Below are positions 18,907 through 64,000 of a stretch of DNA of 64,000 nt, one piece after another. The stretch covers positions 2,944,001 to 3,008,000 of the forward strand of contig OY970296.1 in assembly GCA_963716175.1 (NCBI GenBank). The letters are read 5' to 3'. The position numbers and the translations under genes are program-made. The stretch's first letter is position 1; every line of letters begins with the position of its first letter. The notes under the pieces were generated by a model, which was given only the letters and a program-made list of their open reading frames with translations, made no database searches and was not told the DNA's origin. The DNA is from an uncultured Armatimonadetes bacterium (GTDB lineage Bacteria; Armatimonadota; Hebobacteria; Hebobacterales; Hebobacteraceae).

Positions 18907-18925
18907 CTCATATCAGCCGTCGGTC

Positions 18926-30262: not shown

Positions 30263-31387
30263 ATGAGAGTCGCGATTGACGCGCGAGCGGCCGACGGACC
30301 GCCCACCGGCATCCGGTGGTACCTTCGCACATTGGTCCATGCCCTGGCTGCATCCCCAGACGAGAACCGCTATCTCCTCCTTCGTCATGGGGCATCCGAC
30401 AGTCCGCCGTTGACGCAAGACCCGCGATTTGAGGCTGCGAAGCTACCATCGCCGGCGGACATGTGGATGGAATTGCATGTGGACGAGGTGCTGGGGGAGT
30501 GGCAGGCTGATCTCTTCCACTCACCGTTCGCGCCGGTCCCAACGGTTCGCCCCTGTCCAGCGATCATGACAGTCCACGATGTCATCCCGCGTCTGCTGCC
30601 GGACTTGGTGGACGGGGCTTTCCGCAGGTACTTCCACGAGCGCCTGGTGCCGGGGTTCCGGCGCTGCCAGCGACTGATCGCGGTGTCACAGCACACCGCG
30701 CAGGATCTGACGCATCTCTACGGCGTCCGCTCCGACCGCATCAGCGTTGCCGCGGAGGCAGCCCCGCCCGAGCACGTGCAGCTAGTTCTTTCCGAGCAGG
30801 CGGCGCTAACGCTGACCCGCCTGGGAGTGAATCCCCCTTACTTCCTCTTTGTGGGCGCGATTGAACCACGCAAGAACATCTCGCTGCTGCTCGACGCATA
30901 CGGTCAGCTCCACCAGGAAGACCCCACCGTGCCACAGTTAGTCCTCGTCGGTGCGGCGCGGGACCAGTCAGACCAGGTCGCACGCAGGTTACGTTCCCTC
31001 GCCGAGCAGAAGGCTCTGGTGTGGCTGGAGTACCTGACTCCAGACGATCTGTGCGCTGTTTACAGTCAGGCGACGGCGCTGGCGTTCCCGTCCTTATATG
31101 AGGGGTTTGGGTTGCCCGTGCTTGAGGGGATGTCACATGGTGTGCCTGTGGCCTGCTCCTATGTGTCTTCCCTCCCAGAGCTCGTGGGCGACGCCGGCCT
31201 CCTGGTCGACCCGTACGACCCCGGACAACTGGCATCTGCACTCGCCCGACTGTGGAACAGTCCTGAACTCCGCGCCGAGCTAGGGGGGAAAGCGAAGGCC
31301 AGGGCGAAGCTGTTTGGGGTGGAGCGCATGGGGAGGGAAACACTCTCGGCGTACTCGCTAGCGGTGGGCTGGAGTGTCGGCGGGTAG
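30263..31387 (+). CDS. Glycosyltransferase family 4 (MtfB/WbpY-like)
   Basis: MRVAIDAR, TVHD, VGAIEPRKN, PSLYEGFGLPVLE. Confidence 0.93.
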   Translation: MRVAIDARAADGPPTGIRWYLRTLVHALAASPDENRYLLLRHGASDSPPLTQDPRFEAAKLPSPADMWMELHVDEVLGEWQADLFHSPFAPVPTVRPCPAIMTVHDVIPRLLPDLVDGAFRRYFHERLVPGFRRCQRLIAVSQHTAQDLTHLYGVRSDRISVAAEAAPPEHVQLVLSEQAALTLTRLGVNPPYFLFVGAIEPRKNISLLLDAYGQLHQEDPTVPQLVLVGAARDQSDQVARRLRSLAEQKALVWLEYLTPDDLCAVYSQATALAFPSLYEGFGLPVLEGMSHGVPVACSYVSSLPELVGDAGLLVDPYDPGQLASALARLWNSPELRAELGGKAKARAKLFGVERMGRETLSAYSLAVGWSVGG

Positions 31388-31650
31388 CTTGTAGAACCCC
31401 TCGGTCCGGTAGAGAGGCCGCGTGGGAGGCACACTCGCGTGTCGAGCGACCTCCCTCTTCTGGCAGAAGACGACGAAGAGGCGCTCAAGCACCACCTATC
31501 CGCGCCTCCGGAGAGCGGGGCAGTTCTGCTCCGTGGTGGGCTGGCCCCGGGGACTGTAGGTGCGCGACATCCCGCGTTCCTCTACGAGTGAAGGGAGCAG
31601 GGAGCATCGCAGAATGCCGCCGGCAGGGCGGGTAAGGATGGCCACTGGCG

Positions 31651-32790
31651 ATGCGCATCGGCATTGATGCCCGCTCGGTCTACCCGGGCCACGGCGGCAT
31701 CGGCACTTACGTCTGCGAGTTGGTGCGCGCCCTGGTGCGCGTGGACTCTGGCAACGAATATGTCCTCTTCTCCACCGAGCGGAAGGGGCCTACCCCGATC
31801 GCCCTTGCGCCTAACCTCACTGAGACGCTGTGTCCGGCCGCGATGCTAGACCGGCGCTGGGAGCAGTTCGAACTGCCCAGCCTGGCAGAGGCCCTCGCGT
31901 TAGATGTGCTGCACATGACTTGCTTCACCACCCCCATCGCCAAGACCTGCCCGGTGGTGGCTACCATCCACGACGTAGTCTTCCGGGTGCGACCGGACTT
32001 GGTCCGCCCAGCCCTCGCCGATTACCTCGACCGCTGGGCGGGCTTTGCAGCGCACACGGCCGACCAGGTGATCACCTGCTCGCATCACTCCTGCCGGGAG
32101 ATCAGCCGGGTCTATGGGATATCGCCACAGCGCATCACGGTGATCAATGAAGCGCCCGGCCCCCAGTTCCGCCCGGCAGACCGGTCGCACGCCGCATCCC
32201 GAGTGCATGACAGGCTCGGGCTGGATGCGGGCTATGTCCTTTATGTCGGGGCGCTGGAACCGAAGAAGAACATCGACGGCCTCCTGGACGCTTTCGCCCA
32301 GTTGCTGCGGAACGGGCGAGTCCCGCCGGGGATGACACTGGCCCTGGTGGGGGGTGAAGGGGGCATGCCTTATGATGTGGATCAGGCGGTGCGCTTGCGC
32401 AGCCTCGGAGAATCCGTGAGAGCACTAGGTTACGTGGCAGATGAGGAGCTGCCTTTCCTCTACCGCGCGGCCGGCGTGTTCGTCTATCCCTCGTTCTACG
32501 AGGGATTCGGGCTGCCTCCCCTGGAGGCGATGGCCTGCGGCACTCCGACTGTGGTCTCCAATGCCACCTCCCTTCCAGAAGTGGTCGGTGACGGAGCGCT
32601 GCTGGCCGATCCCGAGCATCCGTCCGAAATCGCAGGAGCCATGGAGAAGGTACTGCTAGACCCGGCGTTTGCGTCGGCGCTATCGGCGCGAGGACGGGCG
32701 CGGGCCGCTCAGTTCAGCTGGGAGGAAACTGCCCGGTCGACTCTGCAGGTCTATCAGCGCGCGGCCGGCGGCACGAAGGCAGCGGCCTGA
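31651..32790 (+). CDS. Glycosyltransferase family 4 (MtfB/WbpY-like)
   Basis: [32 protein letters not shown]. Confidence 0.95.
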
Positions 32791-33965
32791 TGCGCGTGCT
32801 GATGCTATGCTCAGAGTACCCGCCGGCCAAGGTCTTTGGCCTGGGACGGGCAGTGCACGATCTGTCCCGTGCCCTTGCTGCGCGTGGAGACGATGTGCAC
32901 GTCCTCACCAACAGCCTGGGGGGACGCGACCAGGACGTGGTTGTGGACGGAGTCCGCGTCCATCGCGTCAACTTCCCGAACCCACCTCGCCCGCCGGATG
33001 CCACCTCCTGCGTCATCCAATTCAACATCAGCCTGCTGGAGCGCGCTCAGGCGTTGCTGCCTTCGCTGGGGGATCTGGACCTGATCCATGCTCACGACTG
33101 GCTCGTCGCTCTCGCCGGGGTGTACCTGAGCGATCAGCTCCAGGTGCAGCTGGTAACTACCTTCCACGATACCGCCATGGGGAAGTACTTCGGCAACCTG
33201 AACCGGGAGCAGCAGTACATCTCGTTCTCGGAGCGCTGGCTGGCCGGCGCATCTAGCCGAGTGATCGCCTGCAGCAGCCACGTCAGAGATGAGCTCATCC
33301 AGCACTGCGGTACCCGGGCCTCCCAGATCGATGTCATCCCCTGCGGGGTGGACCCGGACCCGTTTGAGGTCACGGTGAACCTGTCGGCGTTCCGCACTGT
33401 GCTTGCCGGCCCCGAGGAGCGGATCATCCTCTATGTAGGTCGTCTGGACCCGGAGAAGGGAGTGGACGTGCTCGTGCGCGCCTTCGCTCTCCTGGGCGCC
33501 GAGGCCGGTGATCTCCGACTGGTGATCGCGGGAGAAGGGCAAAGGCTCCAGGAGTTGCAGCAGCTGGCCGAAGAGGTGGGACTGGAAGAGAAGGTGACAT
33601 TCCTGGGATACGTCAGCCATACGGCACTGGCAGCAGTCTACCGGGCTGCGGAACTGGTCGTGGTGCCCAGCCTTTATGAACCCTTTGGCATGGTAGCGCT
33701 GGAGGCGATGGCGGCGGGCCGTCCGGTGGTAGCGACGGAGATCGGAGGGCTGTCCGAGATCGTGGTTCTGGAGCGAACGGGGCTACTGGTGGCAGCCGGA
33801 GACGAACGGGCGCTGGCGGCAGGGATGGACCGAGTACTGCGGGAGCCTGGGCTGTCCGCAGCATTGGGCGCTGCTGGTCGAGAGCGCGCGTTGCGGGAGT
33901 ACTCGTGGCAGCATGTGGCCCAGCAGACCAGCCAGTGCTACTCACGGAGCGCGAGTTCCGCATAG
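32790..33965 (+). CDS. Glycosyltransferase family 4
   Basis: EYPP, HAHDWL, VGRLDPEKG, PSLYEPFGMVALEAM. Confidence 0.95.
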   Translation: MRVLMLCSEYPPAKVFGLGRAVHDLSRALAARGDDVHVLTNSLGGRDQDVVVDGVRVHRVNFPNPPRPPDATSCVIQFNISLLERAQALLPSLGDLDLIHAHDWLVALAGVYLSDQLQVQLVTTFHDTAMGKYFGNLNREQQYISFSERWLAGASSRVIACSSHVRDELIQHCGTRASQIDVIPCGVDPDPFEVTVNLSAFRTVLAGPEERIILYVGRLDPEKGVDVLVRAFALLGAEAGDLRLVIAGEGQRLQELQQLAEEVGLEEKVTFLGYVSHTALAAVYRAAELVVVPSLYEPFGMVALEAMAAGRPVVATEIGGLSEIVVLERTGLLVAAGDERALAAGMDRVLREPGLSAALGAAGRERALREYSWQHVAQQTSQCYSRSASSA

Positions 33966-34023
33966 CGGCGGCGGTCCAGCCAGCGCGCCAGGAGAGCATG
34001 ACACGGGACGAGAAGGTGATAGC

Positions 34024-35148
34024 GTGCGGATAGCCATTGACGCCAGACTATTGGGGACTCGAGATACGGGGAGCGCAGTGTACACGCGCGCCCTGCTGCA
34101 GGCGCTGGCTGAACTGCCGGTCTCGCACGACTTCGCGCTCATCTGCAGCGCTGGCATCCAGGGTGCTTGGCACCCAGGTCGCCGGTTCGCCTGGCTGGAG
34201 ACTCCAGAGGCCACGCTCATGAACGAGCGGTGGGAACAACTAGACCTGCCCGCCCTGGCAGCCGAGGCCAGAGCGGAAGTCTACCTTTCCCTCACCGGGC
34301 TGCTGCCGGCCGTGCAGACGTGCCCCCAGGTGACGCTGATCCACGATGTCGGCGTAGAGGACGAACCTGGCTTCTACCCCACTCCTCTTTGGGAGTACCT
34401 CAGGAAATGGCTGCGCGCGGCCGCCGCTCAGGCCGACCGGGTGGTCACGGTCTCGCAGTTCGCGAAGGTTGGCATTGAGCGGGCATATGACGTCGACGCC
34501 GAACGAATCGACGTGGTCGCTCCCGCAGCAGAGCATCGGTTCCAGCCGGTACCAGATGGACAGGAGCGGAGACTAGTGTTGCTCCATTACGGCCTGGACG
34601 GGCCCTACGTTATCACAGTCGCCGCAGCGCAGCCGAACAAGAATCTCACCGCGGTGCTGGAGGCGTTCTGCTCGGCCGGTGGCACGGCAAGGACCGGCCA
34701 CCGGCTGGCACTAGTGGGAGGTGCAGGAGGCGCGGCGTCAGCCGTGCAAAGGGCCGTCCGCCAGCTGGGCCTGGAGGAGGCAGTTCGGTTCCTGGGGTAC
34801 GTACCGAGGGATCACCTCCCCATGCTCTACAGTGGTGCCAGCTGCTTCCTCTGGGGGTCCCTTTACGAAGGGTTCGGGCTGGCACCGCTGGAAGCGATGG
34901 CCTGCGGCACCCCCGTGGTTTCCTCCAACCGTACAGCAATGCCGGAGGTCCTGGGCGACGCCGCGCTGCTCGTTGACCCGGCCGATGCGGATGCGATGAG
35001 CTGCGCCCTCACTTCCGTGCTGTCTGACCAGTCGCTTCGGAACCAGCTGCGAGAGGCCGGGATAGCAAGGGCCCGCTGCTTCTCCTGGCAGAGGGCTGCA
35101 GAGCAGATGGTGGCCTGTCTAGAGCGGGCAGCGGCAGGGGGATCATGA
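34024..35148 (+). CDS. Glycosyltransferase family 4 (MtfB/WbpY-like)
   Basis: [29 protein letters not shown]. Confidence 0.93.
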   Translation: MRIAIDARLLGTRDTGSAVYTRALLQALAELPVSHDFALICSAGIQGAWHPGRRFAWLETPEATLMNERWEQLDLPALAAEARAEVYLSLTGLLPAVQTCPQVTLIHDVGVEDEPGFYPTPLWEYLRKWLRAAAAQADRVVTVSQFAKVGIERAYDVDAERIDVVAPAAEHRFQPVPDGQERRLVLLHYGLDGPYVITVAAAQPNKNLTAVLEAFCSAGGTARTGHRLALVGGAGGAASAVQRAVRQLGLEEAVRFLGYVPRDHLPMLYSGASCFLWGSLYEGFGLAPLEAMACGTPVVSSNRTAMPEVLGDAALLVDPADADAMSCALTSVLSDQSLRNQLREAGIARARCFSWQRAAEQMVACLERAAAGGS

Positions 35149-36401
35149 TGCGGAGCCGCGGCGGTGACGAGCGACTCAATTCCCAGACGACGGTAGCCGG
35201 ATCAGGGGATCGCCCCCTTCGCGTGCTCATGCTGGCGCCCAAGCCTGGCAGCGAGAGCGCGTTCGCCCTTGACTGGCATGTCCCTGGTCTGGCACGGGCG
35301 CTTTCAGCGCGTGGTTGCGAGGTGCATCTGGCCGGCGGCGGCCCACATACTGGCAAGCGTCTCGCGCAAGGGAGGGTTCGCCTCTACTCCGGGCAGCGGC
35401 GCCCACCATTTCGCGCTCCCGGCCCCATCTCGGACGCGCTGCAGGAGCAGGCCGGCCTGGTGGCAGCTGTGTTTCAGGCAGACGCGGATGTCGGTGCTTT
35501 CGATGTGCTGCATGCCCACGGCTGGGCCGGCGCCGCTGCCGCCCATGCCCTCAAGCGCGTGTCAGGATCGCCGCTAGTTTTCACCCTCCATCGGCTGGAG
35601 CATCTGGAACCGGACAGCCAGCAGCCGGAGGAACTCGCCTACATCCGGGAGGTCTACGCCTGGATCTGCCAGGAGGCGGAGCGGGTGATCTGCCTGTCTC
35701 GCTTCGTCATCGGGGAGGCTGCGCAGGCATACGGGCTGCCGTCCGACAAAGCACACCTGTGCCCAGTAGCGGTGGATGCAGAGGATTTGCAGACTGGTGC
35801 CGATATTGCCGCCTTCCGGGAGTTGTTCGGGGCCGGGCAGGGGAGGCTGATCACTTTCGCCGGTCGGCTCACCCGCGCTAAGGGCCCTCAGGTCCTCTTG
35901 GAGGCATTCCCGTACATACAGGCGGTCGTGCCTGATGTGAGAATGGCGATCTCTGGCGAAGGGCCTTTGGGTGCATGGCTTCTCCGGCGAGCCCAGGAGT
36001 TGGGTGTGGAGGCGGAGGTTACGTTCACCGGCTATCTGCGGGGCAAGGTGTTGGCGACGCTGCTGCGGTCAAGCGATGTTTTCGTTGCCCCAAGCCTCGT
36101 GGAGGCCTCAGGCCAGGCTGCGGCCGAGGCCATGAACTGTGGCACGGCAGTGGTGGCATCCGCCGGGGGCGGCCTGCGGGAGCTGATCGCTAACGAGGAA
36201 GATGGGCTGCTGGTTCCTCCAGACAACCCCAAAGCCCTGGCTGCCGGGGTGGTGAGGATGCTCTACGATGGTGATCTGCGCGGGAGGCTGTCAGCGAACG
36301 GCCGGCGACGCGTCATGGCCGGCCACTTGTGGCAGAGGGCGGTGGACGCCACCTTGCAGGCCTATGCCATTGCCCGAAAAGCGCGGTCGGATCTGCCCTG
36401 A
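35145..36401 (+). CDS. Glycosyltransferase family 4
   Basis: HAHGW, AGRLTRAKG, PSLVEASGQAAAEAM. Confidence 0.9.
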   Translation: MMRSRGGDERLNSQTTVAGSGDRPLRVLMLAPKPGSESAFALDWHVPGLARALSARGCEVHLAGGGPHTGKRLAQGRVRLYSGQRRPPFRAPGPISDALQEQAGLVAAVFQADADVGAFDVLHAHGWAGAAAAHALKRVSGSPLVFTLHRLEHLEPDSQQPEELAYIREVYAWICQEAERVICLSRFVIGEAAQAYGLPSDKAHLCPVAVDAEDLQTGADIAAFRELFGAGQGRLITFAGRLTRAKGPQVLLEAFPYIQAVVPDVRMAISGEGPLGAWLLRRAQELGVEAEVTFTGYLRGKVLATLLRSSDVFVAPSLVEASGQAAAEAMNCGTAVVASAGGGLRELIANEEDGLLVPPDNPKALAAGVVRMLYDGDLRGRLSANGRRRVMAGHLWQRAVDATLQAYAIARKARSDLP

Positions 36402-36413
36402 CGGAGCCAGGCA

Positions 36414-36788
36414 GTGTACAGTGACGTGATACAGGATCACTTCTTCAATCCCCGCAATGCCGGCGAGCTGGAGAACGCTGACGGCGTAGGTACGGAAGGC
36501 AGCCCGGGCTCTGGCAACTTCATGGTAGTTGCGGTGCGGGTGCGAGCCGGCCTGATCGAGGCCGCAAGGTTCCAGACCTATGGCTGTGCCGGCGCCATCG
36601 CGGCCGGCAGCTATCTCACCGAGTGGATCACCGGGCTGAGGGCAGAAGAGGCCGCTGCCATTACGCCCGGGGAGCTGGACAAGCAGCTGGGGGGTCTGCC
36701 TCTGGGAAAGGAACACTGCGCCGCCTTGGCGGTGGGCGCGCTGCGCCGAGCCCTTGAGAGCGTGGGGATAGGCCGCGGACCTGGGTAG
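36414..36788 (+). CDS. IscU/NifU-N-like scaffold protein, atypical (first Cys and Asp missing)
   Basis: YSDVIQDHFFNPRNAG, FQTYGC, LGGLPLGKEHCA; GSPGSGN in place of GNPxCGD. Confidence 0.88.
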   Translation: MYSDVIQDHFFNPRNAGELENADGVGTEGSPGSGNFMVVAVRVRAGLIEAARFQTYGCAGAIAAGSYLTEWITGLRAEEAAAITPGELDKQLGGLPLGKEHCAALAVGALRRALESVGIGRGPG

Positions 36789-36800
36789 GCCGCACGCTGC

Positions 36801-37160: not shown

Positions 37161-37433
37161 ATGACGATGGCCGAGAGGGCTGAGTGGCAGCATCTTGGGG
37201 ACGAGTCGCGGCCGGAGCGCCTGTGGTACCTGGCTTCCGAACTCGATGCTAGCCTGGAGGGGATGCAGCAGCGGCGCAAGCAGAAGCGGGCACGTTTGGA
37301 GCTGGCTGGCATGATCCTGGCGCAGGGTCAGGATGAAGACTGGACCAGATCCGAGCGAGACATCAGCGGTCCACCGGAGGCCTATCCCAAGGGGGTGTCA
37401 CCAGCGAGCGGCGCACTGCACACGGGAGCATGA
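37161..37433 (+). CDS. Small hypothetical protein upstream of Rhs
   Basis: GGAG RBS; 90 aa; stops 4 nt before the likely Rhs ATG. Confidence 0.5.
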   Translation: MTMAERAEWQHLGDESRPERLWYLASELDASLEGMQQRRKQKRARLELAGMILAQGQDEDWTRSERDISGPPEAYPKGVSPASGALHTGA

Positions 37434-37437
37434 AAAG

Positions 37438-39255
37438 ATGGCAGACGAGCATGGAAGGCGCGAGTTGAAGGCTGAGGAGCCCGAAGGGAAGGGGCCGGTG
37501 CAGGCGGAGGGCGCATCCCCTATGCCCACCACGGAGGAGGGCCCACGTCCGCCGGAGGTGAATCGCGCAGGGGCACTGTCCCGGGCGGCGCTGCCTCTGG
37601 GCGCCGGCGTGTTCTTGGACCTCGCTACCGGCGGCCTCTCCCTGGACCCGGATATGTACCTGCCCAGCCGGGGCATGGATGTGGAGCTGCGCTTCTACTA
37701 CAACAGCGACGACCCCTACAACGTCAACTTCGGCTACGCTCGCACCATGTCTCTGAATCGGTTTCTGGAGATCGACACCCCTTCAGCTAACAAGGTGACT
37801 GTGCACCTGGGGACAGGTCGCCGGGATGTCTACTCGTTGACCAGCGGGATCTACAAGCCTGCGCCCGGAGCGTATGACACGCTCACGAAGACGGATAGCA
37901 CGTGGGGACTGCGGCGCGCCCGAGACCAGGTGTACTTCGCCTACGATGCCGCGGGACGGCTCTCGTACATCAAGGATCTCAATGGGAACACCCACACCAT
38001 CGCCCGTGATGGCAGCAACCGCATCAGCAGCCTGATGGACGGCGCGGGAAGGCTGGTCACTTTCACCTACGATGGCAACCGGCTGAACAAGGTGCTGGAC
38101 TGGGCTGGCCGCTACCAGTACTTCAGCTACGATGGCGCTGGCAACCTCACCAAGGTGATAGGCCCCACCCTGTGCGTCACCTCCTACGGCTATGACGGGA
38201 GCCACCGGCTGACCACCATCATCGACCCGGATGGATACGTGTTCACCTACGAGTATGATAGCAGCTCCGGCCGGGTGACGGGGTACGTTCGCCCGGGAGG
38301 GGAGCGCTCCGTCTTCACCTATCCGTCGACGGGGCTGACCGCCAAGATCGACGCCCTTGGGCAGGTCACCTATTACCACTATGATGCCAACCGCGATATC
38401 ACCTCGCTCACAGACGCCTCGGGGAACACTACCACTTACACCTACGGCACCTGGCGGGAACTGCAGAAGGTCAAGGACGCAGAGGGCCGGGTCACCACCT
38501 ACACCGTTGACATTGGCGTGGGCCGCGGTCTAGTGACTGCGGTTTTCGATCCCAGGGGAGGCATCACCTACTACGATTACAACAGCCAAAACCGCATGAC
38601 CAAGTGGACGGACCCTTTGCACCGGGTGACGACCTACCACTACGATGCCAGAGGCAATCTGGATTACGTTATCGACCGCACCGGCAGCATGACCACATAT
38701 ACCTACGACGGCTACGGCAATCGGACCTCCATGATTGATCCCTTCGGCCGCACTACCACCTATGATTACGACTCGAACGGCAACTTGATTGCGGTGGGCG
38801 ATCCCCTGCGGCATACCACCACCTTCGACTACGATCCGGCAGGGAACGTGAAGCTTCGGACCAATGCCCTCGGTAAGACTACCTACTACGAATACGATAA
38901 CATGGCCCGACTGACCAAGATTACCGATCCGGACAACAACATCACCCAGTACGCCTACGACGGGCGGGGCAATCGCACTCTGGAGGTGGATGCCAAGGGT
39001 AATCGGACCACCTACCAGTACGATGGCAACTCGCGGCTGGTGCAGATGATCGACGCCTTGGGCCAGACCACCACCTATGATTACGACCAAGAGGGCCGGC
39101 AGATCAGGATAGTGGATGCTGAGAACAATGCCACCTTCTTCGACTACGACGCTGTGGGCCGGCAGACGGGCATGAGGGACGAAGCGGATCGACGGGTGCG
39201 GCGTTCCTACAGCAAGACGGGTAACCTGCGGCGGCGGGTGGCGAGCCGCGGTTAG
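37438..39255 (+). CDS. Rhs N-terminal part: DUF6531-like domain + YD repeats, no core or toxin
   Basis: GVFLDLATGG...LPSRGMDVELRFYYNS followed by many Y.YD..G repeats. No PxxxxDPxG motif. Confidence 0.9.
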   Translation: MADEHGRRELKAEEPEGKGPVQAEGASPMPTTEEGPRPPEVNRAGALSRAALPLGAGVFLDLATGGLSLDPDMYLPSRGMDVELRFYYNSDDPYNVNFGYARTMSLNRFLEIDTPSANKVTVHLGTGRRDVYSLTSGIYKPAPGAYDTLTKTDSTWGLRRARDQVYFAYDAAGRLSYIKDLNGNTHTIARDGSNRISSLMDGAGRLVTFTYDGNRLNKVLDWAGRYQYFSYDGAGNLTKVIGPTLCVTSYGYDGSHRLTTIIDPDGYVFTYEYDSSSGRVTGYVRPGGERSVFTYPSTGLTAKIDALGQVTYYHYDANRDITSLTDASGNTTTYTYGTWRELQKVKDAEGRVTTYTVDIGVGRGLVTAVFDPRGGITYYDYNSQNRMTKWTDPLHRVTTYHYDARGNLDYVIDRTGSMTTYTYDGYGNRTSMIDPFGRTTTYDYDSNGNLIAVGDPLRHTTTFDYDPAGNVKLRTNALGKTTYYEYDNMARLTKITDPDNNITQYAYDGRGNRTLEVDAKGNRTTYQYDGNSRLVQMIDALGQTTTYDYDQEGRQIRIVDAENNATFFDYDAVGRQTGMRDEADRRVRRSYSKTGNLRRRVASRG

Positions 39256-39265
39256 GGGGCGATTC

Positions 39266-46447: not shown

Positions 46448-46571
46448 GTTCCCCGCGGGGTGAGAGCGCAGAAAGAGGATGGGCCTGAAGTTCGCCGACG
46501 CAACGGTCAGGCAAGACGGGCTCGGCGCGGAGCGGACAGCCAGGGATCCTATGGCCCACGCTTGCCGCGGG

Positions 46572-46766: not shown

Positions 46767-46806
46767 TGTTCATGCTTGAGGGGGCCTCGACGAGGCGAGC
46801 AGACCG

Positions 46807-55630: not shown

Positions 55631-55688
55631 TGTTCTCTCCGTCCGTGCCCGACCGCGCAGTGTCCCGACCCTCCCTTCCGCTTCGGTG

Positions 55689-56630
55689 CTAGCCTCCAAG
55701 GTACCCAAGCCCTCGAAGTCGCCTCTCGACCTCGGTGATGTTGTTCCCCTCCCCGAGCGGAACGTAAGCGGCGATGATCTTGTGGAGTTGTGCGTTGCTC
55801 CGGATGCGAGGCGGAGCCGGCCCCGGGGTAGGCGGGATCACCGCAACGAGCACCTCGCGCGCGACCCCGGTCTGGTAGGGAGCCGACACGCCGTGGCCCC
55901 AGACGTCGTCTTCGCCGTGACTGTCGCCGTGGTCGGAGCAGACGATCAGGAGCGTCTCGCCATCCGCGAGAAGCTGCGGCCAGATCGCGGCGAGCTTGCG
56001 ATCCGTCTCGAGGCAGTACTGCTCGTAGCGGCTTCGCAGGTACTGCTTCGCCTTGTCGGGGATCGGGAGCCACCCGAGTTCGCTATCGATCACAGGGCAG
56101 AATCGCCCTTCCTCTATGTCAGCCAGGGCAGAAGCCTCCACTCCCACGACGCCGCTCGGAATGACCCGCCCCGGGAGATATGGCTCGTGCACCTCGAAGA
56201 GGTGGATGTATGCGAACCAGGGACGGCTCTGTTGAGAATGCCAGGCGAAGAACTGCTCCCAGACACCCTCCATCGAATAGGGTCCCCACCAGGAGCCGTC
56301 CGAACAGGACCAAACGTGCCCGAAGTCCCGGAACAGCCACATCGCCTCGTGGACCGCGAGCGTGGACTGACCGAGGAAGGCGGCGGTGGAGTGCGTCTGT
56401 CCGAGGCGGCTCGCCAGCGTCTGCATGCGCACCGTGTCTTCGGGGCCGTACATGAAGGCGAGGTCGTTTCCGAACATCATCGCCCCAACGCTCGGGAGCG
56501 TCGCCGCGATGATAGTGTCAACTCGCTCCTGCCGATGTCCGGTCACCAGCAGAGCCGAGAGGTGCGGCATCCGCGCCGGCGTCACATGATCGACGCGGAG
56601 GGCGTCCAGGCAGACGATGCAGATGTTCAT
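55689..56630 (-). CDS. Sulfatase/alkaline-phosphatase-superfamily protein
   Basis: LDALRVDH, TLPS (Thr nucleophile position), HEPY, SDHG, GHG, RLRGLGYL. Confidence 0.82.
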   Translation of the reverse strand: MNICIVCLDALRVDHVTPARMPHLSALLVTGHRQERVDTIIAATLPSVGAMMFGNDLAFMYGPEDTVRMQTLASRLGQTHSTAAFLGQSTLAVHEAMWLFRDFGHVWSCSDGSWWGPYSMEGVWEQFFAWHSQQSRPWFAYIHLFEVHEPYLPGRVIPSGVVGVEASALADIEEGRFCPVIDSELGWLPIPDKAKQYLRSRYEQYCLETDRKLAAIWPQLLADGETLLIVCSDHGDSHGEDDVWGHGVSAPYQTGVAREVLVAVIPPTPGPAPPRIRSNAQLHKIIAAYVPLGEGNNITEVERRLRGLGYLGG

Positions 56631-56717
56631 AGCGTAGTCTCCTCAGAGTCTGCCCAGAGTTTGAAACGTTCCGGTTCAGACCGACCGCCTGTCGAGTCAT
56701 GACCCGTCCCGCAGCGC

Positions 56718-57827
56718 TCACACGGTAATGGGGTTGCCGAGGAAACCATCCCCCCAGAACACGGGCTGGTATCCGCGATCTGTCACCCAGCGCAGCGAGC
56801 GGATCACACTGTCCTGCATGTGTGGTCTGTAACAGGGGAGCTCTCTGCGGAAGAAGTGCTCGTGGATGAGGAGTTCGATGAGTTCGCCGGTGTGCAGACT
56901 CGCGGCCTGCCGGTCGAGCCAGGGGTCTATCTCCTGGGGTCGAAACTCGTTCACTATCGCGTCGACAGTGATGAATATGAGGTCGGCCTCGGCGTCGTAA
57001 TAGTGGTCGCGAGTACTGGCGTGGTGCTTGACGGATTCGGCCAGATAGTATCCGGTAGTGCACTCGGCGGGTCCAGAGTGGAAGATCGCGACGAGGACAC
57101 GGATCCCGCGATCGTGGAGAGCGCGGCACGCGTCGGCCGGCGCCTCGGCGAAGTGAACCGTAGTGACCGGGCCCAGTGCCGACGCCCCTGCAAAGCGCTT
57201 GATCTCAGCTACCACGAGATCATAGTCATGCGCCATCCGCTCATAGGACGCGTTCCTATAGGGGCGACTCGGCTCACACTGCAGCGCGTGGAAGGATAGG
57301 CGCAGCCAGTCCGAGTTCGCCTCCCATTCATCCCGCCATTTGTCAGGCATCTGCCGGAGGGTGAAGTGCCCGAACATGGTCTGGTAGTAGATGTTCATAT
57401 GGATCTTCGCGCCATACTGTTCGTGCATCTGCCGCCAGAACTCGAGATACCAGTGGTCGAACAGCGAGCGGTAATCCTCTGGTCGTCTGCCCAGGTCCAT
57501 CAGGAAGAGGATGTTGTCGTCCACCGAGAGCCGGTACCTAGGCCGCGAGCCCTTGTCCCACAGCACGGTAACCGTATCCTCCGACTCTGCTCCGCTATGC
57601 CGGGCAACCGCGGCGATCTGGTTCTTGCGCTGGCGCAGAGGGACGGCGCATTTGAACGACCCCCCCTGGGCACAGGCCGGCACAGCGTTGACCGTGACGA
57701 GCGCGCCCTTTGGGGCAGTTCCCTCGACCTCGACCAGCAGTGAGTCAGCGGTCTCGTTGCCATCGTGGCGGTTCAGAATGTCACCATTCCAGGGATGGAT
57801 GATCTTGACTCTGTGGTCTCCGCTGAT
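56718..57827 (-). CDS. Ig-like domain + polysaccharide-deacetylase-like (NodB-fold) protein; probable ATC start
   Basis: LSVDDN, LSFHA, LLIHE. Frame is open to 57839, with AAGGAG 6 nt before ATC 57827. Confidence 0.6.
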   Translation of the reverse strand: MSGDHRVKIIHPWNGDILNRHDGNETADSLLVEVEGTAPKGALVTVNAVPACAQGGSFKCAVPLRQRKNQIAAVARHSGAESEDTVTVLWDKGSRPRYRLSVDDNILFLMDLGRRPEDYRSLFDHWYLEFWRQMHEQYGAKIHMNIYYQTMFGHFTLRQMPDKWRDEWEANSDWLRLSFHALQCEPSRPYRNASYERMAHDYDLVVAEIKRFAGASALGPVTTVHFAEAPADACRALHDRGIRVLVAIFHSGPAECTTGYYLAESVKHHASTRDHYYDAEADLIFITVDAIVNEFRPQEIDPWLDRQAASLHTGELIELLIHEHFFRRELPCYRPHMQDSVIRSLRWVTDRGYQPVFWGDGFLGNPITV

Positions 57828-58083
57828 GGGATGCTCCTTTCAGGTACGGGACGTGCCTTCTTAGCACGGGCATTCCACACCGGGTTCCGAGGCAAGTCGC
57901 TGGCGACGTGGATGATCCTGTCGATGGGCCCAGAATCGGTTCTCGCCCTCGGCGCGGTAGAGGGGCTTGGGTATGCGCGTGGCTGTCACAGGCGATTCGA
58001 CAGGCACACATCGATCTACGACGGCGGAGAGCCCCTCCAGCCACAGTTCAGGAACGCGGAGCCCCTTCCAGAAGATGGACCCG

Positions 58084-59394
58084 TCATAGGTCACGTGGGC
58101 CCTCCGGACTCGACCTGGCAACGCTGCCAAGCGACGACATGGCCAGTGCAGTGCCCCGACGCACTGAGCGGAGCCAGGGGCTCAGCACCTCTCGATGCCC
58201 TGGCGCGGTGCGCGGAAGCACCCCGTCTAGCAGGTGCATCCACGCACGCGCGGTGCGGTCCCACGTCATCGTCTCGGCGAATGCTCTGCCTTTGCGTGAG
58301 TACTCCTGGCACAGGTCGCGATCGGCGTAGAGCCGCTCGAGTTTCCCGTTCAGATCGCCAACATCGGCCAGCGCGTACTCCGCGTTGTCCCAGTTCATGG
58401 TCAGCCAGTTGCGCACGGCGATGAGTTCGCCTCTCCCTTCCACAAGCTCGGTGACTGCCGAGCATGCTGTGGCAATCACGGGAACACCGGCGGCCATTGC
58501 CTCCAGGATGGGCAGGCCGAACGCCTCCCCCATGGTGGGCAGCGCCATCACGTCGAAGAGATTGTAGAAGATGTTCAGCGCACGAGAAGAGACCCCAAGC
58601 GGCCCTGCCAGCCGCCGCGTGAACGCTACCTGCTTCTCTACCTTATGCAGCTTCACCAAGTCCAACAGCCGCCAGGCAGGGCCATCCGGGTCCATGTGCA
58701 GATAGAGCACGGAGTCGGAATGACGCTCGGCGAAGACGGCGAAGGCCTTGATCAGGATGGGGATCTGTTTGCGAAAGGTGTTGAGAGCTACGCACCCGAT
58801 GACGAACTTGCCCTCAAGTCCGAGCGCCGCGCGCAGGGCGTCCCGATCAGGTCGCGGGTAGAAGGTCTCCGTATCTACCCCAAGAGGGATGAGCCGCACC
58901 GTCGCGCCTGACTGGGCCTCGTCAGAGCTGCCTTCGGCCAAAGCGGACTGGCACCACGCCGATGCGACCACGACTCGGTCCGTCCTGGACACCACCTCCT
59001 GCATCTTGGCGGACACCGGTGACGCCTCGAAGAAGGCATATGCGACCCGCGAGACAACCTCGCGCAAGGGCACCTCGCTCATGGTCTCAAGGGCGGAAAG
59101 CGGCCCGGAGGTCACGACCACATCGGGACCGAATTCCTGAATGACTTCGTTTGTGCGGACGCTCGACCACGGTTGGGACCCCGGGGCGAACATGGTGCGA
59201 TCGCCCGAACCGTCTAGGGGGGGCTGTACAGTCCACCCGAGCACGCCAACCTCGTATTGGCCGCTGGCGGCGAGGCGCTTCGTGATCTCGTCGGCGACAC
59301 GTCCCTGTCCGGTGTGCGAACGCGGACTTTCGCTTACCCACAGGACGCGCGGCGTGGACGTGTTGCCGCGACGTTCGGCGCGATCAGTTAGCAC
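58084..59394 (-). CDS. Glycosyltransferase family 4
   Basis: WVSESP...TGQG, NTFRKQ, GEAFGLPILEAMAAG. Confidence 0.92.
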   Translation of the reverse strand: MLTDRAERRGNTSTPRVLWVSESPRSHTGQGRVADEITKRLAASGQYEVGVLGWTVQPPLDGSGDRTMFAPGSQPWSSVRTNEVIQEFGPDVVVTSGPLSALETMSEVPLREVVSRVAYAFFEASPVSAKMQEVVSRTDRVVVASAWCQSALAEGSSDEAQSGATVRLIPLGVDTETFYPRPDRDALRAALGLEGKFVIGCVALNTFRKQIPILIKAFAVFAERHSDSVLYLHMDPDGPAWRLLDLVKLHKVEKQVAFTRRLAGPLGVSSRALNIFYNLFDVMALPTMGEAFGLPILEAMAAGVPVIATACSAVTELVEGRGELIAVRNWLTMNWDNAEYALADVGDLNGKLERLYADRDLCQEYSRKGRAFAETMTWDRTARAWMHLLDGVLPRTAPGHREVLSPWLRSVRRGTALAMSSLGSVARSSPEGPRDL

Positions 59395-60106: not shown

Positions 60107-60269
60107 GGTTTCCTTCGCGCTCGCGCACCGAAGCATCTCGGAGCACGCAAAGTGTGAGCCAGATTGGCCGAGCTCCTTCCAGTGAGCTTTGAGAGCAGAC
60201 GGCAGGAGGTGTTGTGGGCGCTGTAGAGAAGGGGTGTTATATCAGTGCAGGGGGACTAGGGGGGGGACC

Positions 60270-61262
60270 GTGCTCGCCAACCGGACAAGGGCCGCAGCCG
60301 CTCCCACGGTGACGCTCGAGACCAAGTGCTGGGAGGGAGACTGGGAGCGGATCCTGAAGACAGACCATCTCCAGGTCCTGTGCGAGCGGAACTGCTACCC
60401 TTTCTCCTCCCGAATGCTCATGATCAACAACGTTACGGACCGCGGCGAGGTCTGCCGATGGGCACAGCGCGCGGTGGAGGATGGGCGGCTCACGGGATTC
60501 GCGGTGGCGGAGGAGCAGGCCGATGAGGCCCTGGGCTTCTTTGGGCTGACGAGGGAGGGATTGGGCAGGGGCTACGTATACTCCATTGCTGAACTGGTGG
60601 CCATCTACCTGTGCGAGTCCGACTACTTGCTGCATTTTGCCGGCGACTCGTTCCTTCCGATCAAGTGCGATTGGGTCGCTCGCGCGTTGGCGATGTTCGA
60701 GGCCGATGGGCGTGTGCGGGTGGCCAACCCGACTTGGACCGAACGCTATTGGGAGGCCAGACAGGAGGCTTTCGAGGAGACCCCGGACTGGTACTTTGGT
60801 TACGGGTTCTCCGACCAGTGTTATCTTGTCCGCGTCTCCGACTTCCGGGGCCGGATATACAACGAGCACCATCCCGCCTCCGCGCGCTATCCCGGGTACG
60901 GCGGCGAGCTCTTTGAGAAACGGGTCGACTCTTGGATGCGCAACCACGGCTATGTCCGGATAACGTTCAGGCATGGATCGTATATCCATGGGGAACCCCT
61001 CTACCCGCCGGGCAGCCGGGTCCACGCACCTCAGACGAGCGTGGCCAGTCCTGGCTGCGAAGAACGTGGTGAGAAGAGCAATAAAGCGGCACCTGGCCGT
61101 CAGTGGATGACCGGCCACCGACCAACGCGTTCCCCGACTCGGCCCCGCGGGTCGCGGTCGTGTACGATGACATTGTCCGCCCGGACACGACCGGTGGCTA
61201 CTGCTTCCGCGCCATGCAGCGCATCGCCGCGGCGACCCATCTGGGGCGGCAAGAGGCCTTGA
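60270..61262 (+). CDS. Hypothetical GT-A-like protein
   Basis: TLETKCWEGDW, YLLHFAGD, GFSDQCYL, HP...RYP.YGGE.FEKRVD. Low-complexity tail overlaps the next gene by about 160 nt. Confidence 0.6.
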   Translation: MLANRTRAAAAPTVTLETKCWEGDWERILKTDHLQVLCERNCYPFSSRMLMINNVTDRGEVCRWAQRAVEDGRLTGFAVAEEQADEALGFFGLTREGLGRGYVYSIAELVAIYLCESDYLLHFAGDSFLPIKCDWVARALAMFEADGRVRVANPTWTERYWEARQEAFEETPDWYFGYGFSDQCYLVRVSDFRGRIYNEHHPASARYPGYGGELFEKRVDSWMRNHGYVRITFRHGSYIHGEPLYPPGSRVHAPQTSVASPGCEERGEKSNKAAPGRQWMTGHRPTRSPTRPRGSRSCTMTLSARTRPVATASAPCSASPRRPIWGGKRP

Positions 61263-64000
61263 TTTCCGGGCTGACCTTTGACTACCTCTTGCGGGTGGAC
61301 GACGATTTCGATTTCGGACTGCCTCCCGGTGCGCCCCCATCGGCCTTCTGGGTGATCGACACCCACACCAACTTCGACCGTCGGCTACAGCAGGCGCGGA
61401 GTTTCGACCTAGTCTTTGCGGCCCAGAAGGAGGGAGCGGAACGGCTTCGCCGAGAGGGCATCGAGAACTGCGAGTGGCTGCCTCTGGCATGCGATCCGGA
61501 GGTTCACCGCCGCCTGGATGTCGAGAAGGAACTCGACGTCGCATTTGTCGGTGGCATGCACCCGGGGCCGCGCCAGGAGCTGCTGTCCGCGGTGCAGCGG
61601 TGCTGTCCGAAGTCCTTTGTCGGCCAGGTCCGGCATACCGAGATGTGCCAAGTGTACAGCCGGGCAAGAATCGTCATAAACTGCTGTCTCAACAATGACC
61701 TGAACATGCGGGTGTTCGAGGCGCTGTCGTGCGGGGCGCTGCTGATCACGAATCGATTGGAGGGCAATGGGCAGGAAGAGCTGTTCAGCGATCGGGTACA
61801 CTTGGTCCAGTACGATACCATCGACGAGGCGCTCTCGCTGATCGACTACTACTTGAGGCACCCGGAAGAAGCGGAGCAGATCGCGGAGATGGGCCACCGA
61901 GAGGCGGTGGCGAAGCATACCTATCGGCACCGCATGGAGCGGGTGTTGGCGAGGATGTCGGCTTGGGCTCCGGAGCAGCTGTCGGGCGGGGCGAAGCGGG
62001 AGGGCGAGGCGCCGAAGGAGCTTGGGGCAGGACGGGATGTGAGGTACTTCCGCGGGACGGGCGTCCACCTTGGGGAACTGGTGCCCAGGAGTGCCCAGCG
62101 AGTGCTGGACGTGGGCTGTAGGGCAGGCGTATTCGGCGAGTCGCTGAAGCGCCGGCAGGGGTGCGAGGTGGTGGGGATCGAGCTTAACCGCTGGGCGGCG
62201 GAGGAGGCGCGGACAAGGCTCGACCTCGTGATGGAGGGGGACGCGGAGACGCTCGATATCGCTTCCCTAGGTTCCTTCGATGCCGTCGTGTGCGGGGACG
62301 TTCTGGAGCATCTACGGCAGCCGGAGGAGATGCTGCGGCGGATCCGCCAGGTGATGACCAAAGGCGGGGTGCTGGTTGCGAGCATTCCGAACACTCGTCA
62401 CATGGAGGTTCTGCAGCAACTCGCCGAGGGCAACTGGACTTACGAGCCGACCGGGCTGCTGGACAGAGATCACCTGCGTTTTTTCACGCGACGCAGCGCG
62501 GAGCAGATGTTTGAGGAGGCCGGCTACGAGGTGGTGGATGTCCAGGGAACACCTTCGCATGGCCATGCCGGCTGGGAGGGAGCGGGCCGCCCGAACCAGA
62601 TAAGGGCCGGCCGTTTGGTGCTGTCTGGGTTCGGGCCTGAGGAGTCCGAGGAGTTCTTCGTCGGCCAATGGCTGATCACGGCGCGCCCGTCCGAGCGCGT
62701 TGACTGGGGCCTGACGTCCATCATCATCCCTACTTGGAATCAGCTGGACTACACGCGGCTGTGCATCGAGAGCATCCGCAAGCACACGCGCCTCCCTCAC
62801 GAGATCATTGTGGTGGATAACGGATCGAGCGACGGCACGCCGGCTTGGCTCGAGTCGCTCTCGGACGTGCGTGTGATCGCGAATGCGACCAATCTCGGGT
62901 TCCCGAAGGCCTGCAACCAAGGATTGCAGGCCGCGATGGGGGCGAACCTTCTGCTTCTCAACAACGACACCGTGGTGACGCCGGGATGGCTGCGGCGCAT
63001 GCTGACCCATCTGCACGGCGCGCCCGAGGTGGGGATCGTAGGCCCACTCACGAACTACGCTGTTGGCGATCAGCAGATCGAGGTCGGCTACAAGAGCCTA
63101 CTTGAGCTGGACGGGTTCGCCTGGGATCTGGGGAGACGCAGGCGAGGCATGACGACCGCCACCGGCATGATCGTTGGCTTCTGTCTGCTCACCAAGCGCG
63201 AGGTGATCGGGCGCATCGGCCTGCTGGACGAGCAGTTTGGGATGGGCACGTTCGAGGACACGGACCTGTGCTACCGGGCGACCGCAGCTGGCTACCGTCT
63301 GCTGATATGCCAAGATGCGTTCGTGCATCACTTCGGCAGCCGGACCATGATCGGGAATCAGGTCCCCGGGGAGCAGCTGCTGGAGGAGAACCGCCTGCGA
63401 TTCGAGCGGAAGTGGGCGCTGAGTGCTCCCAAGCCAGACGTTGCGGCGGCGCCGCCGCAGCCGTCGGCGGGCCCCGCACCACCTGCCACCGAAGTGGTGG
63501 GTCGCGGGCACGGTAAGCGCCGGCGCAAAGCGAAGCGGCCACTGCCGGCTCCGGCCTCGCCCACCATCTCGTTGTGCATGATCGTGCGGGACGAGGAGGC
63601 GCACATCGCCGACTGCCTGAGGAGCGCAAAGCCCTATGTCGACGAGATGGTTGTGGTGGATACTGGGTCCAGGGACCGGACCCGGGAGATCGCGCGCTCG
63701 CTGGGGGCGAAAGTCTTCGACGCCCCCTGGGAGGACAGTTTCTCCGCCGCCCGGAACCGCTCACTCGCGCAAGCCACCGGAGAGTGGATCTTCTGGATGG
63801 ACGCGGACGATGTGTTGCCACCGGAGAGCGGGGAGCAATTGCACAGATGCGCGGCCGAGGCGCCCGAGCACGTGTTCGGGTTTATCGCACGGGTCCGCTG
63901 CCCAGCCGGGCGCAACGAGTATGGCGAGACTGTCGTCGACCACGTGAAGCTGTTCCGGAACCGGCCGGATCTCAGATTTGAGCTTCGTATCCATGAGCAG
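61103..64000 (+). CDS. Multidomain CgeB-like GT-B + methyltransferase + GT2 + GT2 (runs off the window's right edge)
   Basis: Manual translation, not in the ORF track: RPDTTGGYC, WLPLACDP, DLNMRVFEA; VLDVGC, GDVLEHL; SIIIPTWN, VVDNGS, LLNND; SLCMIVRDEE, WMDADD, RIHEQ. Confidence 0.9.
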   Translation, partial: MDDRPPTNAFPDSAPRVAVVYDDIVRPDTTGGYCFRAMQRIAAATHLGRQEALISGLTFDYLLRVDDDFDFGLPPGAPPSAFWVIDTHTNFDRRLQQARSFDLVFAAQKEGAERLRREGIENCEWLPLACDPEVHRRLDVEKELDVAFVGGMHPGPRQELLSAVQRCCPKSFVGQVRHTEMCQVYSRARIVINCCLNNDLNMRVFEALSCGALLITNRLEGNGQEELFSDRVHLVQYDTIDEALSLIDYYLRHPEEAEQIAEMGHREAVAKHTYRHRMERVLARMSAWAPEQLSGGAKREGEAPKELGAGRDVRYFRGTGVHLGELVPRSAQRVLDVGCRAGVFGESLKRRQGCEVVGIELNRWAAEEARTRLDLVMEGDAETLDIASLGSFDAVVCGDVLEHLRQPEEMLRRIRQVMTKGGVLVASIPNTRHMEVLQQLAEGNWTYEPTGLLDRDHLRFFTRRSAEQMFEEAGYEVVDVQGTPSHGHAGWEGAGRPNQIRAGRLVLSGFGPEESEEFFVGQWLITARPSERVDWGLTSIIIPTWNQLDYTRLCIESIRKHTRLPHEIIVVDNGSSDGTPAWLESLSDVRVIANATNLGFPKACNQGLQAAMGANLLLLNNDTVVTPGWLRRMLTHLHGAPEVGIVGPLTNYAVGDQQIEVGYKSLLELDGFAWDLGRRRRGMTTATGMIVGFCLLTKREVIGRIGLLDEQFGMGTFEDTDLCYRATAAGYRLLICQDAFVHHFGSRTMIGNQVPGEQLLEENRLRFERKWALSAPKPDVAAAPPQPSAGPAPPATEVVGRGHGKRRRKAKRPLPAPASPTISLCMIVRDEEAHIADCLRSAKPYVDEMVVVDTGSRDRTREIARSLGAKVFDAPWEDSFSAARNRSLAQATGEWIFWMDADDVLPPESGEQLHRCAAEAPEHVFGFIARVRCPAGRNEYGETVVDHVKLFRNRPDLRFELRIHEQ

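Follow-up and report, generated by a model that had tools for sequence, protein, structure and literature searches.

The IscU*-Rhs locus and its gene neighbourhood

The window analysed here is a 64,000-nucleotide stretch (G000:C1:2944001-3008000) from an uncultured Armatimonadota bacterium, whose genome (G000) is a single contig of 4.56 Mb with 66% GC and 91% completeness. It carries a split Rhs toxin gene, preceded by a row of glycosyltransferase (GT) genes and a gene for an IscU-like protein, termed IscU*. From the comparisons below, this gene set is a real, conserved and apparently undescribed variant of the Rhs toxin systems. Armatimonadota denotes here the genomes assigned to the same phylum as the window genome. 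All genes listed in a first-pass annotation of this DNA were found, at about the positions given there, by scans for open reading frames (ORFs) and protein families. Its claim of co-orientation also holds: 30.2-54.7 kb is entirely on the plus strand. The genes at 54.9-59.4 kb are on the minus strand, and those from 60.2 kb onward are again on the plus strand. The core of the locus is as follows.

30239..36401, plus strand: five GT4 glycosyltransferases, a conserved operon 5' of IscU*
36414..36788, plus strand: IscU* (NifU_N/IscU fold), below all four curated IscU/NifU/SufU cut-offs
37161..37433, plus strand: small conserved ORF of 88-90 aa (90 aa here), directly ahead of Rhs, with homologs in L009 and L120
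37438..39255, plus strand: RhsA, 605 residues, with a short leader, a weak DUF6531-like start and the front YD shell (family matches)
38173..38175, plus strand: codon of Cys246, the sole RhsA cysteine and the invariant hairpin cysteine in the alignment of linked Rhs
39266..45361, plus strand: RhsB, whole gene (Rhs family matches)
39266..41500, plus strand: modelled RhsB N-terminal module, with a beta-rich domain (1-205), a beta-propeller (about 210-740) and an apparent inserted beta-sandwich
41501..44329, plus strand: back part of the YD shell and Rhs core of RhsB, ending DPSG (aa 1685-1688); TIGR03696 above cut-off
44330..45361, plus strand: C-terminal payload of 343 aa (81 Gly, 15 Cys), a Gly/Cys-rich linker and a domain of ~180 aa without known family
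45413..46447, plus strand: lipoprotein with a TolB/PD40-like propeller and a lipobox-like motif, probable immunity protein
46479..46847, plus strand: degenerate orphan Rhs-core fragment, 83% nucleotide identity to 43732-43926, with stop codons inside

In IscU, zinc or the iron-sulfur (Fe-S) cluster is bound by Cys37, Cys63 and Cys106 together with Asp39/His105 (PMC4243993). In IscU* the columns Cys37/Asp39/Cys63/His105/Cys106 read S, N, C, H and C, so that the full scaffold set is absent. The protein had been called Cys-less, which is wrong: Cys37 and Asp39 are lost, to Ser and Asn, yet Cys63, His105 and Cys106 are present as C58, H101 and C102. IscU* scores 110 bits against the TIGR03419 cut-off of 188, and a canonical IscU is encoded elsewhere in the same genome.

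Both Cys37 and Asp39 are missing from 70 of 229 distinct IscU-family proteins. Together with the protein of L211, a clade member that was binned as canonical by column, these (71) are set apart from the rest by a branch with SH-aLRT 97 in a quick tree of 112 columns. Since family alignment scores do not separate IscU* from canonical IscU, the classes were assigned by residues and tree. The class is defined by the loss of Cys37/Asp39 and that absence thus follows from the definition, whereas neither the tree nor the neighbourhood does. Within the clade, Cys63 was found in 150/150 sequences, His105 in 108/150 and Cys106 in 122/150. Part of the 'iron-sulfur cluster assembly scaffold' annotations in Armatimonadota and Planctomycetota is misleading.

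One IscU* subgroup (L312, L313, L338, L339, L341, L360) has gained a cysteine three residues before Cys63 (CNGC). Both His105 and Cys106 are missing from 9 of the 12 CNGC proteins, and the extra cysteine may be a compensating ligand. Another stand-alone planctomycete IscU-like type (L406, L407, L408) keeps Cys37/Asp39 and lies outside the IscU* clade; by eye, L407 stands near GT- and methyltransferase (MTase)-like ORFs.

Gene neighbourhoods of the clade were compared with those of canonical IscU. The window was left out of the counts; at least 3 kb of downstream sequence was required for Rhs, and at least 3 kb of upstream sequence for GT and IscS. Of 30 clade loci, 24 have an Rhs no more than 10 kb away, against 1 of 79 loci binned as canonical; that one is L211, which leaves 0/78 true canonical loci. 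GT genes adjoin 22/25 clade loci versus 2/78 canonical-binned ones (L211 being one of the two), and IscS adjoins 0/25 versus 59/78. With loci added later, a GT match was present in 31 of 34 clade loci having at least 5 kb upstream, and a match to the GT2-tetratricopeptide repeat (TPR) region, described below, in 24. The association spans Armatimonadota and Planctomycetota. These sequence counts show that the linkage of IscU*, Rhs and GT genes is real and not due to chance. The first-pass annotation had suggested that these genes may form one system and had proposed this comparison with canonical IscU; for the core of the locus, its view is borne out.

GT4 arrays stand 5' of IscU* in L009, L010, L011, L015, L119, L199 and L249. 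Orthologs of the multidomain GT gene that begins at position 61103 directly follow IscU* in L009, L121, L122, L124 and L138. IscU* is fused to a GT4 in P0133 and to a C39 peptidase in P0093, and C39 also follows IscU* in L128 and L363. No nearby match to the window GTs was found for the IscU*-Rhs pairs of L023, L032 and L137. Six clade loci are without Rhs (L009, L138, L172, L199, L212, L213); two of these, L009 and L138, have the 61103 ortholog after IscU*, and the contig end of L009 carries the homolog of the small ORF.

Planctomycetota neighbourhoods with an Rhs, an IscU-like gene and a GT bearing RP[DE]TTGxYC had been mentioned in the first-pass annotation, and one does exist. Plasmid pPL62-2 (NZ_CP011275.1) of the cultured Planctomyces sp. 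SH-PL62 carries Rhs, a PD40 protein, a GT4, a 61103 ortholog, another GT and IscU*. Its 61103 ortholog is full-length, reads RPETTGTYC and is 46-57% identical over four domains. The PD40 protein has a lipobox-like motif and occupies the same slot as the immunity candidate of the window.

The slot of the small ORF is filled in other lineages by Cys/Gly/Pro-rich ORFs, seen after IscU* in L016, L029, L129, L133, L137, L141, L154, L164 and L182. These small ORFs share an N-terminal motif, MSVGxxPDxxGxL...CxxC, which is like the first Rhs hairpin, and are fused to Rhs in L149.

Co-variation of a shell cysteine with IscU*

Alignment of the N-termini of IscU*-linked Rhs placed a hairpin cysteine (GPTLCVTSY in the window) at one fixed site, near the N-terminal end of the YD shell. 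Of 52 rows, 51 have this cysteine (49 of the rows being distinct), and the remaining one is truncated. The linked Rhs have a median pairwise identity of 31%, and the cysteine column is among their five most conserved. RhsA has no cysteine other than this one (C246), and residues 1-800 of the SH-PL62 Rhs likewise have no other.

Two reciprocal tests were carried out. In the first, Rhs from 301 Armatimonadota genomes, 114 of which gave a match, were ranked by profile score, and 150 of the 277 matches were listed. IscU* was found just upstream of 26 of the 36 Cys-bearing Rhs examined among these. For 8 of the remaining 10 it was present elsewhere in the genome (G170 twice, G184, G217 four times, G275). 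IscU* accompanied 0 of 18 Cys-lacking Rhs having about 8 kb of upstream sequence. The 36 and 18 omit G242, G247, G109:C60 and G282, which end before the column, and G058:C69, G061 and L342, which have little upstream sequence. Among 20 low-scoring control Rhs, L341 alone had the cysteine and L341 alone had IscU*. Five genomes with Cys-lacking fetched Rhs gave matches to canonical or short SufU-like proteins only.

Selection in the second test was blind to both IscU* and Rhs. The CgeB domain of the 61103 protein was compared with 251 Planctomycetota genomes and matched 14 places in 10 of them, 7 strongly; the surroundings of 6 of these strong matches and of 3 weak ones were retrieved. Rhs was found downstream of 5/5 full-length 61103 orthologs and of 0/3 weak matches. 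These five GT+Rhs loci come from three genomes. L399 alone among them has IscU* and alone has the cysteine; the others have D, A, A and E at this site. G377 and G527, genomes of the IscU*-less loci, hold only paralogs that retain Cys37/Asp39. From this pattern, GT-Rhs linkage exists without IscU*, and the cysteine follows IscU*.

Taken together, the alignments and neighbourhoods show that IscU*, Rhs, the small leader-like ORF, the immunity gene and the GTs travel together, and that the hairpin cysteine is kept where IscU* serves Rhs. The suggestion that IscU* is a dedicated accessory gains support from this co-variation (51/51 untruncated rows and the loci of the second test).

Rhs proteins, flanking genes and export route

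PF05593, TIGR01643 and TIGR03696 score above cut-off in the Rhs proteins, and the PxxxxDPxG motif is present with DPSG at aa 1685, as in Rhs polymorphic toxins. The C-terminal domain is of the variable kind: that of the window differs from those of P0187 and P0188, and a lipoprotein gene and an orphan core fragment lie next to it. RhsB begins with a 745-residue non-YD module. Three proteins, P0187 (2090 aa), P0188 (1390 aa) and P0178, start at the same point with 38-44% identity; P0187 and P0188 run on into YD repeats and core and have no DUF6531 start, and the YD part of P0188 is too short for a shell alone. The RhsA/RhsB split looks natural, because the RhsB start recurs in these three homologs, whose upstream genes lie outside the available sequence. 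In G058, a genome of the same family as the window genome, Rhs is an unsplit protein of 1133 aa, so the RhsB module is variable.

The model of the RhsB module (predicted local distance difference test, pLDDT, 73) has a beta-rich domain and a propeller. Foldseek ranked PLL/PHL sugar-binding lectins first for the propeller, with a likeness to 7-bladed lectins and glycoside hydrolases. The VIA fold search ranked CylK first, a few Z units at most ahead of hydrolase, lectin and lyase propellers (Z 32-28). From the model, the propeller is a candidate target-binding module. The module was found in 0/30 other same-class genomes and is known from the window and the three homologs.

Library scans gave no family match for the payload domain. 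Comparison with a fold atlas gave unnamed clusters (0.90 and below) and DUF6345 at 0.84, which is a lead only; the single-sequence model of the C-terminal domain (pLDDT 39) was unusable. An SHG...HC pair in this domain may resemble a caspase-like dyad. No similarity was found between the payload and the second C-terminal (CT) remnant of the window genome. Paralogs of the lipoprotein are encoded at G000 2381606 and 1547529, the first beside Rhs-CT remnants, and the lipoprotein of the window is probably the immunity protein.

Scattered immunity paralogs, Gly-rich CT-linker remnants and Rhs fragments were seen in the window genome at G000:C1 2381606, 1547529, 2121694-2125161, 1331141-1334319, 910758 and 2864187, with one intact Cys-lacking Rhs among the Rhs pieces. 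In other Armatimonadota (L016, L203, L204, L210, L215, L217, L338, L377) Rhs is split at one fixed shell/core site, where WDGxDYLGE-stop is followed by an ORF starting MAMxVxY..., with stop and start adjacent. Downstream 'orphan' core-toxin modules carry their own start at the same split point and could be payloads swappable without recombination.

The core is flanked by the following genes.

28418..29509, plus strand: membrane protein with 2-3 predicted transmembrane (TM) segments and a C-terminal domain, putative holin-like partner
29516..30160, plus strand: Peptidase_M15_4 peptidoglycan peptidase (PF13539, E 1.6e-9), candidate release (lysis) gene, syntenic in L281
46807..54710, plus strand: variable tailoring block with HprK-like kinase-GT4, NTP_transf_5-like, multi-GT, radical SAM (rSAM) plus SPASM, and GT17 (family matches)
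54935..59394, minus strand: MTase, sulfatase-like, deacetylase-like and GT4 (58084) genes (family matches)
60189..61262, plus strand: ORF ahead of 61103, without known family in library scans
61103..64000, ending at 65089, plus strand: CgeB-like GT (RPDTTGGYC)-MTase-GT2-SunS-like GT2+TPR (family matches)

A homolog of the membrane protein (28418/28445) stands in synteny ahead of the M15 gene in G058 (L281); a weak homolog adjoins IscU* in L024/L166. The unit probably starts upstream of where the first-pass annotation had placed it, at the membrane protein (28418/28445) and the M15 peptidase (29516), both of which are syntenic in this same-family genome. One contig of G058 holds the membrane protein, M15 peptidase, GT4 operon, IscU*, 61103 ortholog and small ORF. 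The other holds Rhs, a candidate immunity gene, an NTP_transf_5-like gene and, downstream, GT4s 47-52% identical to 58084. The two contigs (C33 and C69) do not overlap exactly, and their adjacency is inferred.

The claim of a single island of more than 30 kb stands for the conserved core; the 46.8-59.4 kb block recurs only partly, and the whole is not proven to be one unit. No homologs of the kinase, GT17, sulfatase-like, deacetylase-like and 60189 genes turned up in the other loci compared, most of which give little sequence downstream of Rhs, and the kinase domain was not found with the window query in 300 other Armatimonadota genomes. The rSAM gene (52897-53861) is frameshifted near 53150-53170 in the assembly, and SPASM is a separate ORF. 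The 61103 gene does encode a multidomain GT; it is not complete in the window, running on to 65089 (1328 aa) and ending in the SunS-like GT2+TPR part. This part has the GT2+TPR architecture of SunS, with a TIGR04195 match of E 1.9e-22 and 79.7 bits, below the curated cut-off of 350.

The absence of a Wzx or ABC exporter from the island was confirmed: the nearest matches to the Wzx family (PF01943) and the ABC2 family (PF01061) lie elsewhere in the genome, more than 200 kb away. Only two genes in 28-66 kb encode two or more TM segments, and the loci examined showed neither an exporter nor a priming enzyme. No lasso cyclase, B protein or precursor was found among the island proteins scanned, very short precursors being outside the search. 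An ordinary surface-polysaccharide cluster lies at G000:C1 2915188-2948212, about 26-60 kb upstream and beyond an integrase/terminase module, and ends at ~4200 of the window. It contains multi-TM membrane proteins and GTs and, by eye, sugar-nucleotide synthesis and aminotransferase genes.

Upstream of 28418 lie a tandem integrase pair, XRE, TerS, ParB-MTase, TerL, insertion sequence (IS) and lysozyme genes. Promoter and terminator scans of the locus gave results near chance, and PADLOC gave generic MTase matches only. The module of tyrosine integrase(s), TerS, ParB-DNA methylase and TerL (window 15733-22429) recurs three times in the genome (G000:C1 2841561-2848713, 2875779-2882220, 3032170-3034055), and no portal or capsid gene was recognised after it. 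A copy of just the integrase pair lies 72 kb downstream at 93% identity. The module possibly represents a family of terminase-only mobile elements. A reading of the toxin system as phage cargo is unsupported: the viral contigs searched yielded neither IscU* nor the RhsB module, and the terminase module is absent upstream in G058. Also observed were a domain of ~430 bp repeated in five surface-protein genes (window 4420-15607) and a stretch (window 12577-15607) 96.5% identical to G000 148328-151358. Past the window end, at 67.5-77 kb in window numbering (L001:6564-16000), an HD-Eco57I-type methylase fusion, a B12 radical SAM, a dCTP deaminase and a second DNA methylase on the minus strand make up a possible DNA-modification or defence unit.

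The N-terminus of Rhs proteins normally sets the export route (PMC8636562), and that of the window Rhs has no such determinant. RhsA and the RhsB N-terminus are without a hydrophobic segment, and the RhsA leader is not a signal peptide, in agreement with the first-pass annotation. Its statement that PAAR, VgrG and WXG are missing extends to the whole genome (91% complete), where PF05488, PF05954 and PF06013 gave 0 matches with positive controls detected. Peptidoglycan hydrolases of two families were found near the loci in a scan of 113 flanking ORFs: M15_4 in the window and G058, and GH25 in L182/L191 and L321. TM segments are present in 28445, with no holin family match; no spanin was recognised, and no dedicated spanin search was made. 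The hydrolases recall the lytic type 10 release of Tc toxins (PMC10847048), but they occur in a minority of loci, and such a route is less than probable here.

Interpretation and comparison with known systems

On balance, we lean slightly towards a type VI/type VII secretion system (T6SS/T7SS)-adaptor-free Rhs toxin system matured in the cytoplasm, with IscU* acting on the shell cysteine, GTs acting on the toxin, and release by lysis or otherwise. IscU* would no longer assemble Fe-S clusters. It would bind the Rhs shell via the hairpin cysteine, chaperoning or gating the cage; a direct IscU*-Rhs interaction is reasonably probable. In a metal version, the Rhs cysteine would replace the lost Cys37 beside Cys63/His105/Cys106 in a Zn or Fe-S site formed in trans. 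In a thiol version, a mixed disulfide or persulfide would form on IscU* Cys63, which fits better with members without Cys106. The two versions appear about evenly balanced. Soluble GTs, above all the SunS-like GT2-TPR, would glycosylate the shell or the small-ORF product using host nucleotide sugars. The particle might exit by holin/peptidoglycan-hydrolase lysis or another route. The RhsB propeller would then bind the target cell, the payload would be freed by autocleavage at DPSG, and the lipoprotein would neutralise the toxin in kin. Binding, glycosylation, toxicity and export route are inferred here from sequence. A narrower proposal, in which IscU* is a toxin-specific metal or thiol 'key' whose three ligands or one thiol, with the Rhs cysteine in trans, lock or chaperone a cage that the enzymes glycosylate, is tentative and less than probable. 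A predicted complex of IscU*, the RhsA N-terminus and the small ORF scored 0.00; the controls likewise did not fold, and the result carries no weight either way.

Several findings weigh against this interpretation. Two Cys-bearing Rhs (G199, G149), in fragmented genomes, had no IscU* that was found. In L328 a degenerate, Cys-free IscU-like ORF (7643-7921, by eye) stands directly before a Cys-bearing Rhs; that genome has an intact IscU* elsewhere. The Rhs profile was built from linked loci, and kin are not independent; part of the co-variation is therefore due to shared descent, which inflates all these counts. A Fisher p obtained for the co-variation is left aside for the same reason. Cys106 is absent from 27 of 149 untruncated IscU*; with Cys106 or His105 missing in a minority, a fixed four-ligand metal site cannot be common to all members. 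The SunS match falls far short of its cut-off. Peptidoglycan hydrolases occur only in a minority of loci (G058, L182/L191 and L321, and the window). The IscU*-adjacent Rhs L371:475-5352 in G184 has an apparent signal peptide, a C39 peptidase and DUF6531, and export may thus differ between loci. A second, Cys-bearing Rhs lies 12 kb from it in G184.

Whether the GTs glycosylate Rhs or build a receptor or self glycan, as the first-pass annotation had proposed, cannot be told apart from sequence. A protein substrate is somewhat favoured, because the GTs are soluble and no exporter lies beside them. It is unlikely, in our view, that they build a surface glycan, exported by a host Wzx or ABC system, which protects kin or is read by the RhsB module, with Rhs unglycosylated and IscU* still its partner. 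The many GT types and MTases would suit a polymer, GT9 and pyruvyl-transferase domains occur in some loci, and Wzx- and ABC2-family genes are available elsewhere in the genome. The lectins ranked first by Foldseek fit as well, but they tie with hydrolase, lyase and CylK propellers, and the RhsB module is confined to the window and three homologs. The loci examined lack an exporter or priming enzyme, and the GT2-TPR part matches TIGR04195, a type that modifies proteins or peptides. GT2-TPR enzymes typically act on such substrates.

IscU* could also be a sulfur or Fe-S carrier for the rSAM enzyme, a Cys-rich GT4 or a thio-sugar, the Rhs cysteine being a lineage marker. A single invariant cysteine resembles that of sulfur carriers, the GT4 fused to IscU* in P0133 has a Cys-rich insert, and rSAM genes occur in the window, L201 and pPL62-2. 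This is improbable: rSAM is rare among the loci and broken in the window, four GT+Rhs loci have the full GT without IscU* and an Rhs without the cysteine, and the IscU*-Rhs pairs noted above have no window-type GT nearby. A patchwork, in which Rhs, an IscU paralog and an ordinary polysaccharide cluster were joined by chance behind a prophage-like remnant, is very improbable. Integrase/terminase and IS elements do flank the region, the kinase domain is confined to the window genome among those compared, the rSAM gene is frameshifted, and gene order varies between genomes. Against this, the association recurs in two phyla with no canonical control positive, the same-family genome has the core without the terminase module, and pPL62-2 has a complete small version. 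For the core a patchwork is refuted; parts of 46.8-57.7 kb may nevertheless have arisen in this way.

The question addressed is how Rhs cages without PAAR, VgrG, WXG or a signal peptide assemble, stay shut and are released. The system offers two handles that co-vary in both phyla, one a single residue (the shell cysteine) and the other a single gene (iscU*), and the plasmid in a cultured strain makes the question testable. If the favoured interpretation is true, the IscU fold would have a non-scaffold role, in a new way of maturing such toxins, and this Rhs would be the first glycosylated one as far as the literature was searched. If the 'key' proposal is true, Armatimonadota and Planctomycetota would harbour a new class of glycosylated, adaptor-less Rhs weapons. 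Searches of the literature for Rhs with IscU/NifU, glycosyltransferase, Armatimonadota or Planctomycetota, subscription papers and supplements being outside their scope, gave nothing on such a system. The part of the 2012 polymorphic-toxin survey that was covered (PMC3482391) has no mention of NifU, Fe-S or iron-sulfur.

Parts of the locus resemble known systems. The HprK kinase PsmK and the nucleotidyltransferase PsmN phospho-glycosylate a lasso peptide (PMC6993621). In the window, too, an HprK-like kinase gene adjoins an NTP_transf_5-like gene, but this is no more than a lead: the matches are weak and below cut-off, the kinase is fused to a GT4, and no lasso cyclase or precursor was seen. 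With the SunS-type peptide S-glycosyltransferases (TIGR04195) the locus shares the GT2+TPR architecture. With cytoplasmic glycosylation islands such as FlmG-flagellin (PMC7591256) it shares soluble GTs, MTases, a lack of export machinery and a large exported protein nearby. Unlike both, its GT2-TPR is far below the SunS cut-off and is fused to CgeB-like, MTase and GT2 domains, and the neighbour is a toxin.

The TcB/TcC cocoon of Tc toxins, released by a type 10 holin/endolysin system (PMC10847048), is also a two-polypeptide YD shell without a signal peptide, and a membrane protein and a peptidoglycan peptidase adjoin the window locus too. Unlike there, no TcA or spanin was identified, the window split interrupts the YD repeats, lysis genes are confined to a minority of loci, and the holin role is putative. 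With the IscU/NifU scaffold (PF01592; TIGR01999, TIGR03419; PDB 4EB5) and SufU, IscU* shares the sequence family, the predicted fold and mostly Cys63/His105/Cys106. It differs in the loss of Cys37/Asp39, in scoring below the curated cut-offs, in having IscS beside it in 0/25 loci and in forming a separate clade. T6SS Rhs with an Eag chaperone (P. laumondii Rhs1-EagR, PMC8636562) have the YD shell, N-terminal plug region, PxxxxDPxG core, variable C-terminal domain, adjacent immunity gene and dedicated cytoplasmic accessory gene in common with the window system. Unlike Rhs1, the window Rhs has no PAAR/TM-domain N-terminus, and no VgrG or PAAR was found in its genome. The window system has instead an accessory of the IscU fold, an invariant shell cysteine, GTs, and a shell split over two genes around a propeller.

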